DNA of 64,000 nucleotides from Escherichia coli (GTDB taxonomy: Bacteria; Pseudomonadota; Gammaproteobacteria; Enterobacterales; Enterobacteriaceae): NCBI RefSeq assembly GCF_030013595.1, contig NZ_CP122768.1; one strand, written 5' to 3'. The notes beneath the pieces are model-generated. The model worked only from the letters and a program-made list of their open reading frames with translations, had not been told where the DNA came from and made no database searches. Shown piece by piece: positions 40,072 through 40,937 of this stretch (position 1 is the stretch's first letter; the number at the start of each line of letters is the position of its first letter). Made by a program: the position numbers and the translations under genes.

Positions 40072-40159
40072 GGTGAGGTGTCCGAGTGGCTGAAGGAGCA
40101 CGCCTGGAAAGTGTGTATACGGCAACGTATCGGGGGTTCGAATCCCCCCCTCACCGCCA
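40072..40159 (+). tRNA. serX: tRNA-Ser (anticodon GGA)
   Basis: GGTGAGGTGTCCGAGTGGCTGAAGGAGCACGCCTGGAAAGTGTGTATACGGCAACGTATCGGGGGTTCGAATCCCCCCCTCACCGCCA: cloverleaf with long variable arm, anticodon loop CU-GGA-AA, 3' CCA encoded. Confidence 0.93.
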
Positions 40160-40937
40160 TCTTTAAAGAAGAGCTCGTACGAAGGTACGGGCTTTTTTTT
40201 CGTATATTGCACACACCGGGGGATGAGAAGCCCCGACCGGGGTTCGACAACTGGCGACAGCCAGTTGGACAGACCGTGAACGCAGTGAGCGGGCTGCCCG
40301 CAGGGCGAGCGAAGCGAGTCAATCCCCCCTCACCGCCATCTTTAAAGAAGAGCTCGTACGAAGGTACGGGCTTTTTTTTCGTATATTGCACACACCGGGG
40401 GATGAGAAGCCCCGACCGGGGTTCGACAACTGGCGACAGCCAGTTGGACAGACCGTGAACGCAGTGAGCGGGCTGCCCGCAGGGCGAGCGAAGCGAGTCA
40501 ATCCCCCCTCACCGCCATCTTTAAAGAAGAGCTCGTACGAAGGTACGGGCTTTTTTTTCGTATATTGCACACACCGGGGGATGAGAAGCCCCGACCGGGG
40601 TTCGACAACTGGCGACAGCCAGTTGGACAGACCGTGAACGCAGTGAGCGGGCTGCCCGCAGGGCGAGCGAAGCGAGTCAATCCCCCCTCACCGCCATCTT
40701 TAAAGAAGAGCTCGTACGAAGGTACGGGCTTTTTTTTCGTATATTGCACACACTGGGGGATGAGAAGCCCCGACCGGGGTTCGACAACTGGCGACAGCCA
40801 GTTGGACAGACCGTGAACGCAGTGAGCGGGCTGCCCGCAGGGCGAGCGAAGCGAGTCAATCCCCCCCTCACCGCCATCTTTAAAGAAGAGCTCGTACGAA
40901 AGTACGGGCTTTTTTTTCGTATATTGCACACACTGGG
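40141..40937 (+). repeat. tandem array of 179-bp units (4 full + 1 partial), each starting with the last ~19 nt of serX followed by a hairpin-plus-T-run terminator
   Basis: Unit starts (AATCCCCCC..) at 40141, 40321, 40500, 40679, 40858 - exact 179-bp period; copies near-identical with single-base variants (C-run length, cacaccgggg vs cacactgggg, gaaggtacg vs gaaagtacg). Confidence 0.92.

Follow-up and report, generated by a model that had tools for sequence, protein, structure and literature searches.

The window analyzed here is a stretch of 64,000 nt from an Escherichia coli chromosome contig (NZ_CP122768.1, assembly GCF_030013595.1), in which ARAGORN finds a single tRNA gene, a tRNA-Ser(GGA) at 40072-40159 on the plus strand, to which the Rfam tRNA model assigns 53.8 bits. 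As this gene is flanked by ghrA, ycdX, and ycdY on one side and by ycdU on the other, we identify it as serX. Tandem Repeats Finder reports one array next to it (40145-40937; period 179, 4.4 copies, 99% matches, 0 indels, score 1556), so that the two programs together bear out a preliminary description of this DNA, made from its letters alone, which had placed about 4.4 nearly identical 179-bp copies after serX. The array lies on the same strand as serX and starts inside the last 19 nt of the gene, as is characteristic of the tRNA-linked repeats (TLRs); its four full modules and partial spacer copy are within the TLR range of one to five copies per locus.

Unit boundaries were set by cutting the sequence after every ...CACCGCCA (Table 1). 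The last 19 nt of serX, AATCCCCCCCTCACCGCCA, contain seven C residues, and this stretch recurs at the end of each unit. The first three units, each of 179 nt, have six C residues in the copied tRNA end and therefore match serX at 18 of 19 nt, and only unit 4, of 180 nt and with seven C residues, ends in the exact 19 nt (19/19). The earlier statement that every unit holds the last ~19 nt of the tRNA is thus accurate for unit 4, but for units 1-3 it must be relaxed by one nucleotide. The partial fifth copy corresponds to the 3' flank of serX in strains that have no RtT module at this site (the empty site).

Table 1. Features of the serX-ycdU region, in positions of the window
Feature	Position	Strand	Remarks
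Sigma-70-like serX promoter (predicted)	40009..40037	+	TTGACC-17 nt-TAAATT; promoter scan
serX, tRNA-Ser(GGA)	40072..40159	+	ARAGORN, Rfam; last 19 nt AATCCCCCCCTCACCGCCA
Repeat unit 1	40160..40338	+	179 nt; spacer, terminator, RtT module, pseudo-tRNA 3' end
Predicted bidirectional intrinsic terminator hairpin, unit 1	40165..40200	both	A-tract, 8-bp GC-rich stem, GAAG loop, U8
RtT module 1 (Rfam RF00391)	40204..40338	+	43.1 bits, E 2.4e-6, model 1-130 of 130
Repeat unit 2	40339..40517	+	179 nt; identical to unit 1
RtT module 2	40383..40517	+	43.1 bits
Repeat unit 3	40518..40696	+	179 nt; identical to unit 1
RtT module 3	40562..40696	+	43.1 bits
Repeat unit 4	40697..40876	+	180 nt; CACACT for CACACC ahead of the G-run; full 7-C end
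RtT module 4	40739..40876	+	42.0 bits
Same predicted terminator in later copies	40344-40379, 40523-40558, 40702-40737, 40882-40917		
Partial fifth copy	40877..~40937	+	spacer and terminator only
ycdU	41071..42057	-	convergent with serX

Each unit opens with a hairpin, GAAGAGCUCGUAC-GAAG-GUACGGGCUUUUUUUU, that starts ~5 nt past the CCA. It had been noted before as a hairpin followed by a T-run, and folding supports this (-17.7 kcal/mol, z -6.4), with the A-tract paired to the U-run. A scan of the minus strand also scores all five hairpins as terminators, and from this score and the pairing of the A-tract with the U-run we predict that the serX-ycdU hairpins are bidirectional intrinsic terminators between convergent genes, ycdU being transcribed into their minus-strand face. 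Apart from the site assigned to serX, the promoter scan detected no promoter-like site on the plus strand between 39850 and 41150, and none inside the repeat units; since the units contain no sigma-70-like site, the idea that each of them is an independent transcription unit was dropped.

The remainder of each unit is a structured module of ~130 nt that starts ~20 nt beyond the terminator; GGAUGAGAAGCCCCGACCGGGGUUCGAC is a stretch within this module. All four modules align with the RtT model of Rfam over its full length (positions 1-130; E 2.4e-6 to 4.5e-6), 2-3 bits under its gathering score of 45 bits. Applied to K-12, the same model gives 133-137 bits for the four copies at tyrT/tyrV, 101 bits for the proK copy, 47-60 bits for five copies in the lysT-valT operon, and 46.3, 46.3, and 36.1 bits for the copies at serX. 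The scores in the window are lower because, compared with K-12, the 5' G-run is shorter by one G and the 3' C-run by one C.

Fold prediction of a whole unit, which had been suggested as a check, yields a multi-helix structure with a minimum free energy (MFE) of -76.6 kcal/mol (z -4.5) that is closed by a helix, P1. This helix (GGGGGAU/AUCCCCC) is present in both the MFE and the centroid folds, and its 3' strand is a copy of the end of the serX T-loop and the 3' strand of the T-stem. The last 10 nt of the unit, CUCACCGCCA, remain as a single-stranded 3' tail in both folds; this tail of the module copies the 3' strand of the tRNA acceptor stem together with the CCA. Two further hairpins had been proposed within the GC-rich part. 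The first, CAACTGGC/GCCAGTTG, is recovered in the folds; the second, GCGGG-CTG-CCCGC, is formed when the sequence is folded singly, but it competes with a CCCG-N-AGGG hairpin that is conserved in the family. Every unit of the window contains the motifs GGAUGAGAA, GGUUCGA, CCCGNAGGGCGA, and GAGUnAUCC, which vary little or not at all among the 73 aligned elements described below.

Two other readings of the module were considered and rejected: (i) a hammerhead-like reading of GAUGAG...CGA, for which the equivalents of C3 and U4 are absent and no ribozyme family appeared in the Rfam scan at E values up to 1; and (ii) a tRNA-like fold with a 5' hairpin, a 7-nt AUGAGAA loop, and a split T-arm, which is not the conserved fold because several members of the family lack the P2 strands, while P1 reaches into the acceptor strand.

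The repeats of the tyrT-tyrV locus (rtT/RttR, RF00391) resemble the serX array in being tandem units of ~178-181 bp directly after a tRNA gene, each ending in the 3' end of that gene, and in sharing the motifs GGAUGAGAA, GGUUCGA, CCCGNAGGGCGA, and GAGUNAAUCC as well as a P1 helix with one tRNA-derived strand. These 178-bp repeats were reportedly described by Egan and Landy in 1978 and by Bosl and Kersten in 1991. They differ from the serX units in several respects: the serX units reach ~45 bits on the Rfam model and the tyr copies ~135; P3 and P4 are longer in serX, where P5 is cut down to GC-GAA-GC; a predicted intrinsic terminator lies in the serX spacer, whereas the tyr spacer contains no hairpin and T-run of this kind; and the tpr open reading frame has 29 codons in tyr and 18 in the serX units. 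Judged from its sequence, the serX module is nevertheless a homolog of the tyrT repeat and a divergent member of the RtT RNA family; the resemblance goes beyond a mere likeness of layout. The suggestion that the array is a serX-linked counterpart of rtT at tyrT is therefore borne out more strongly than it had been put, given the full-length alignment with the Rfam model, the common motifs, and the compensatory changes in P1.

Within the TLR family, the array of the window represents the serX locus, orthologous to rsX1-4 of K-12, and as such it is already known. Locus, flanking genes (ghrA-serX-array-ycdU), and unit architecture are the same in K-12, and identity is 97.5% over 1.8 kb. The units are, however, 179 nt long in the window and 181 nt in K-12, with one G fewer in the 5' strand of P1 and one C fewer in its 3' strand; the terminator loop is GAAG in place of GAAA, and the CCA is followed by TCTTT in place of TATTT. 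TLRs were first seen by Egan & Landy 1978, and the catalogue of Rudd 1999 comprises 22 K-12 copies spread over ten loci, each with one to five of them (PMC8144298). In every TLR, the final 18-19 bp repeat the 3' terminus of the preceding tRNA or rRNA gene, and the copies at serX bear the EcoGene names rsX1-4, with coordinates that abut serX (PMC8144298, supplementary strain table).

Annotation of the locus is uneven. In many K-12 derivatives, PGAP places four 'RtT sRNA' features in the serX-ycdU interval; the genome nearest to the window (99.8% identity) carries the array with no RtT label. The curated K-12 record NC_000913.3 has no feature at the serX array, which may be why the array looked unannotated when it was first described. 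RefSeq labels the repeat where the Rfam threshold is cleared, and the window variant, which falls 2-3 bits under it, stays unlabelled in the nearest public genome.

The distribution of the module was surveyed by a pattern scan for GGATGAGAA-N45-75-CCCGNAGGGCGA, in which each species was represented by one genome; the pattern occurs at 120 or more loci, and 144 matches were listed. A tRNA gene on the same strand lies within 700 nt upstream in 116 of these 144 listed matches, and 95 of the 144 end in the 3' end of their own tRNA (at most 2 mismatches in 14). Among the matches listed, first copies have the tRNA 29-72 nt upstream. Modules accompany at least 12 tRNA species, namely Tyr(GTA), Ser(GGA, CGA, GCT), Pro(CGG, TGG), Lys(TTT), Gln(TTG, CTG), Arg(CCG, TCT), and Glu(TTC), and the taxa among the listed matches include Enterobacterales, Xanthomonas, Kangiella, Chromatiales/Ectothiorhodospiraceae, Mariprofundaceae, and a few others. 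Several of the distant elements were confirmed independently by the Rfam RtT model, with 45-55 bits. Within the listed matches, the 5' strand of P1 is in each case complementary to the T-stem 3' strand of the neighboring tRNA.

We aligned 73 non-redundant elements with MAFFT. GGATGAGAA, GGTTCGA, CCCGNAGGGCGA, and GAGTnATCC are conserved across them; 70 rows from outside E. coli had been selected by GGATGAGAA and CCCGNAGGGCGA, the invariance of which is in these rows a matter of construction, whereas GGTTCGA and GAGTnATCC were not selected for. Because the variable hairpins are out of register in the plain MAFFT alignment, RNAalifold found no more than P1 and the CCC/GGG hairpin in it; a structure specified by hand was therefore scored, and the variable region was folded in each sequence singly. 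Across the 73 elements, the hand-specified helices P1, P4b (the CCC/GGG hairpin), and P5 are 84% paired, compared with 34-47% after displacement of the partners by 1-3 columns. Changes on both sides of a pair in these three helices amount to 208 cells, a value that none of 500 shuffles reaches, and the three most variable pairs of P1 have 13, 35, and 21 double changes, counts to be read with the reservations that the 3' strand of P1 is fixed by the tRNA, that the sequences are related by descent, and that two of the motifs are the search pattern. It is unlikely that the common motifs and the P1 covariation stem from this motif-based choice of sequences, since the independent Rfam model recovers the window units as well. 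The region between GGUUCGA and CCCG, the sequence of which is wholly different between subfamilies, forms two hairpins in 64 of the 73 elements (mean z -2.7). A second internal segment partly tracks the T-stem 5' strand of the cognate tRNA, with 3.7 of 5 positions identical, versus 2.9 for non-cognate tRNAs. An independent published analysis with CaCoFold likewise lists, for RtT, a tandem G-A motif and pairs supported by covariation (PMC7657543). The covariation between species seen in our 73 elements is an argument for the module being maintained as an RNA structure, and structural conservation over so wide a range of bacteria argues against pure junk.

Copy number was compared by searching complete E. 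coli genomes (about 5,425-5,426) with the two unique flanks of the serX array joined. The flanks are close enough to be joined, with serX and ycdU within about 1.6 kb, in 2,066 genomes (38%), and the junction is disrupted in the other 62%: islands begin directly after the serX CCA in O157:H7 and ATCC 25922, and E. coli B has an IS3 within the second module. From 60 genomes drawn evenly down the ranking, both flanks were joined in 23, and lengths were determined in these. The 23 genomes have 0, 1, 2, 3, or 4 modules at serX: 78 bp between the flanks with no module (4 genomes), 180 bp with a single truncated module (1 genome), 259-269 bp with one module (4 genomes), 440-441 bp with two (7 genomes), 621 bp with three (4 genomes), and 798-802 bp with four (3 genomes). 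The expectation that copy number would vary between strains is thus correct. The window and many K-12 derivatives have 4.4 copies, versus 3.4 in NC_000913.3.

The empty allele consists of the tRNA, the spacer-terminator segment, and then unique DNA; in the one-module allele, the module stands between direct repeats of ~81 bp that comprise the tRNA end and the spacer-terminator; and in the truncated allele, the stretch between two C-runs is missing. Empty, truncated, and single-copy alleles are those that would be expected as products of unequal or short-homology recombination. Units 1-3 of the window are identical to one another and yet have four differences from the K-12 units in common, a homogeneity that points to recent amplification or homogenization.

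Taken together, we consider it probable that the array is a serX TLR locus with an RtT-family RNA module at its core, including the following route by which such an RNA may be made. The serX units lie in the path of serX transcription, behind a predicted intrinsic terminator, a type of element that is leaky by design, and each bears a tRNA 3' end. If rtT and the 5S-linked TLRs (RrA/B/F) are taken as a guide, part of the transcription that starts at the serX promoter would read through each terminator; each module would then fold, closed by P1; the copied tRNA 3' end (TCACCGCCA) would offer the same signal for processing by RNase E and 3' exonucleases as the tRNA itself; and discrete module RNAs would be released in amounts that fall along the array. 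Copy number would shift by unequal homologous recombination or replication slippage between near-identical units of 179-181 bp, and the same events would keep the units homogeneous within a strain.

The analogy is with two known RNAs. Among RtT copies, release of a discrete stable RNA is known only for the tyr one, from the rttR annotation, which starts 8 nt past the 3' end of tyrV, leaving 7 nt in between, and stops precisely at the CCA that terminates the first tyr repeat. RrB, which is located between two terminators and is made by read-through and processed, ends 3 nt after its copy of the 5S 3' end (PMC8144298). The 5S TLRs RrA, RrB, and RrF have the same order as the serX locus, a stable RNA gene, a first terminator, a TLR whose last 18 bp copy the 3' end of that gene, and a second terminator, but they are undetected by the Rfam RtT model. 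RrB is the best experimental model for a possible expression of the serX units. RrA, RrB, and RrF bind Hfq, and also CsrA via GGA motifs, and the TLRs of tRNA operons score <0.01 in a predictor of CsrA binding (PMC8144298). A further parallel is offered by 3'ETS-leuZ and similar RNAs, which are by-products freed from tRNA precursors by the tRNA processing machinery (PMC8144298). Unlike the serX module, 3'ETS-leuZ is a short unstructured sponge, with neither a copy of the tRNA 3' end nor tandem repetition, and the two would not be expected to be related in sequence.

We found no expression data on the serX repeats in the searchable literature. With a U8-tailed terminator ahead of every module and no promoter in the units, transcript levels of the serX modules may be very low. 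A single function had been claimed for rtT, an influence on how cells recover from amino acid starvation, and this claim was retracted (PMC8144298). A K-12 derivative from which all 22 TLRs, including rsX1-4, are deleted was built (PMC8144298); any TLR function is therefore dispensable in laboratory K-12. Among the 23 sampled genomes, 4 have no module at serX.

A more specific role is conceivable but doubtful, namely that the module is a selected structured RNA that mimics the 3' part of its own tRNA and serves as a decoy or titrator of a factor that reads tRNA 3' ends. The T-stem strand in P1, the T-loop-like GGUUCGA, and the free acceptor-strand-CCA tail might be the features that act in this way, and candidate targets might be 3' processing nucleases, the CCA-adding enzyme, or a sensor of uncharged tRNA of the ribosome or RelA type. 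Such mimicry fits the occurrence of the module beside at least 12 tRNA species in taxa that range from Enterobacterales to Xanthomonadales, Chromatiales, and Zetaproteobacteria, with a P1 that always matches the cognate tRNA, and it fits the internal segment that tracks the cognate T-stem 5' strand (3.7/5 vs. 2.9); the dispensability of the element in K-12 and its absence from some natural serX alleles speak against it. If the decoy were real, the copy number of the array would set its dose.

The main alternative to a functional RNA module is that only the five tandem bidirectional terminators matter, as an insulator between serX and ycdU, and that the RtT modules are neutral passengers of unequal crossing-over. 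We regard this as unlikely. The two genes are convergent, each unit has a strong A-tract/U-tract hairpin that the minus-strand scan also scores as a terminator, one terminator is retained even in strains with zero modules, and a TLR-less K-12 could be constructed, all of which would suit an insulator; one terminator is, however, enough in many strains, and it is the module, not the terminator, that is conserved beside at least 12 tRNA species, often with no terminator between tRNA and module (spacers of only 29-35 nt). Nor would passengers be expected to have helices that are maintained by compensatory changes, as those of the module appear to be.

It had also been proposed that the array is the footprint of repeated site-specific recombination, in which case each unit would be what an integrative element left behind after duplicating the tRNA 3' end as its att site. 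Duplication of a tRNA 3' end is a hallmark of such insertions, serX is a proven integration site at which islands start directly after the CCA in O157 and ATCC 25922, and in only 38% of the E. coli genomes searched are serX and ycdU still within about 1.6 kb of each other. A real scar at this gene nevertheless looks different: in the att duplications of the OI-48/SRL type, the serX 3' end is duplicated as well, but over only 14 bp, flanking an island of tens of kb with an integrase, and with no structured core or tandem array. In strain F8952, for example, serX is at 3,200,449 and the integrase/ycdU end at ~3,288,000, and the OI-48 scar at serX consists of a 14-bp direct repeat beside the integrase gene, followed by a module-less flank. 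Between serX and ycdU in the window there is no integrase or island gene, and the structured core recurs after many tRNA genes, in different genera and at orthologous positions, with a 5' strand that co-varies with the tRNA. Carriage by a mobile element was likewise rejected, since a search with one unit gave 0 phage matches and 36 of 40 plasmid matches were non-mobilizable, consistent with chromosomal DNA, the plasmid matches being mainly megabase-sized or non-mobilizable records. With a true scar of 14 bp set against a 179-bp unit with a conserved core, the recombination footprint is not supported and is very improbable.

The parallel that had been drawn with the Tpr peptide fares even worse. 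If each unit encoded a small basic protein like Tpr, one could point to the K-12 annotation, which has tpr (29 aa) inside rttR, and to the 18-codon open reading frame (MRSPDRGSTTGDSQLDRP) that starts from the equivalent ATG in the window units. This ATG, however, belongs to the invariant RNA motif GGAUGAGAA; the reading frames are conserved neither in length, which ranges from 3 to 100 codons with a stop after 5 codons in 16 of 24 Tyr-linked elements, nor in sequence beyond ~8 residues; and no Shine-Dalgarno spacing is evident upstream. We therefore hold a peptide gene to be extremely improbable. Equally improbable is an expanded or collapsed repeat in the assembly: although NC_000913.3 is one unit short of several other K-12 assemblies and counts can thus differ within a lineage, an array of 797 bp is well within the span of long reads and even of Sanger reads, the same structure and copy number recur in two other, independent complete assemblies with 99.8% identity, a 97.5% identical array is found in many K-12 derivatives, and every intermediate copy number occurs in nature.

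Regarded as a TLR locus with an RtT-family module, the serX junction is a copy-number-polymorphic marker, with 0-4 modules, in E. coli. Each of its pseudo-tRNA ends holds the 14-bp sequence that serX-targeting islands use as a direct repeat. For the family as a whole, the covariation between species is a reason to put the TLR module to an experimental test.

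In the window, the 5′ G-run of the closing helix P1 of the RtT modules (40217-40222, and the same positions of units 2 and 3) contains five G residues, as compared with six in K-12, while the 3′ C-run of units 1-3 (40323-40328 in unit 1) contains six C residues rather than seven. The loss of one G and one C constitutes a length-compensating homopolymer pair common to these three units; unit 4 has five G and seven C residues. As a consequence of the shortened G- and C-runs, the Rfam RtT score of the window units lies below the annotation threshold.

The unit count of the serX array also differs among K-12-derived assemblies. 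We compared the K-12 reference NC_000913.3 (L003, 1095000-1099500), which contains 3.4 units of 181 bp each, with NZ_CP097884.1 (L001) and the matches H10-H30, H34 and H37. Many other complete assemblies derived from K-12 (DH5a, J53, TG1, EMG2, MFDpir, and another MG1655) have 4.4 units, and 3.4 units are also found in some MG1655 derivatives. This difference reflects either fast array change in laboratory lineages or a miscount in the reference or in some of the assemblies.

In some other strains, the array is reduced or disrupted. Strain ETEC6335 (NZ_CP122588.1, L132, ~1261-1440) has a single RtT module, in which ...GAGTCAATCCCCC is joined directly to the unique flank GCCCACGTCTG. Both the second terminator and the TCACCGCCA tail are missing from this allele, apparently because the DNA between two C-runs was deleted. 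Terminal copies without a tail (AATCCCCCC-GGTGCC...) are also found in other genera (L055, L057, L060, L065, and L084). In the E. coli B strain C2566 (L006, ~5608), IS3 interrupts the second RtT module exactly after ...GCGAGTCA; this strain lacks ycdU, and dgcT is the next gene after IS3.

The inverted repeat that follows the array is retained in all alleles, including the empty, module-less one. The annotation of HCP5S3_I2, the closest public genome (L134, 1474-2459), gives ycdU as frameshifted, but the copy in the window is an intact ORF of 328 codons. The gene cluster beyond ycdU is intact in the window, whereas in K-12 it is truncated by IS3, leaving the pseudogene ymdE. This cluster encodes an ACP S-malonyltransferase, two beta-ketoacyl synthases, an ACP, a FabZ-like dehydratase, an SDR reductase, and a holo-ACP synthase, as well as an ABC transporter and a LolA-like protein, and is followed by a two-partner secretion pair.

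Features of the window on the ycdU side of the array
Feature	Coordinates	Strand	Remark
G/C-rich inverted repeat CCCCCCCCGCCC-AAGTCTGTTA-GGGCGAGGGG	40938-40971		directly after array
ycdU	41071-42057		
Intact gene cluster beyond ycdU	42054-~63000	-	cf. HCP5S3_I2 (L134)

The serX locus is also a site of island insertion. In the O157:H7 strain F8952, an island of ~87 kb starts directly after the serX CCA (L005, 5261-5300), and its far end (L135, 12990-13080) comprises, in this order, a tyrosine integrase, the 14-bp repeat CCCCCTCACCGCCA, the module-less serX flank, and ycdU. Since this 14-mer, or a version one C shorter, is present in every RtT unit of array-bearing strains, each unit could be a candidate secondary attachment site.

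Among the elements of A1, an alignment of 73 non-redundant sequences (L007-L126), those of Enterobacterales have five nucleotides preceding the internal GGUUCGA-like motif that match the 5′ strand of the cognate T-stem at a mean of 3.7 of five positions, as compared with 2.9 for non-cognate tRNAs. Given this resemblance, the module reads like the T-arm of its tRNA with the loop split by ~75 nt of inserted hairpins. The four mutually complementary segments would allow two alternative pairings.

At E values up to 0.01, Rfam RtT matches were absent from both the tRNA-linked repeats (TLRs) of the K-12 argQ-argZ-argY-argV operon (L128) and the 5S-linked TLRs in the rrfB 3′ flank (L130). TLRs, being defined by the copied 3′ end, are therefore a wider class than the RtT sequence family. 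RtT modules linked to Arg(CCG/TCT) are present in other Gammaproteobacteria (L032, L046, and L100).

Finally, sX4 is an sRNA family of Xanthomonas (Rfam). In X. maliensis (L023, 2997-3418), one sX4 match (178 bits) extends across tRNA-Ser(CGA) and the spacer into the initial nucleotides of an RtT module, and a second (77 bits) covers the junction between two RtT modules; the window itself contains a weak match (34 bits). On the basis of the X. maliensis matches, sX4 looks like a transcript of a Ser-linked TLR locus.
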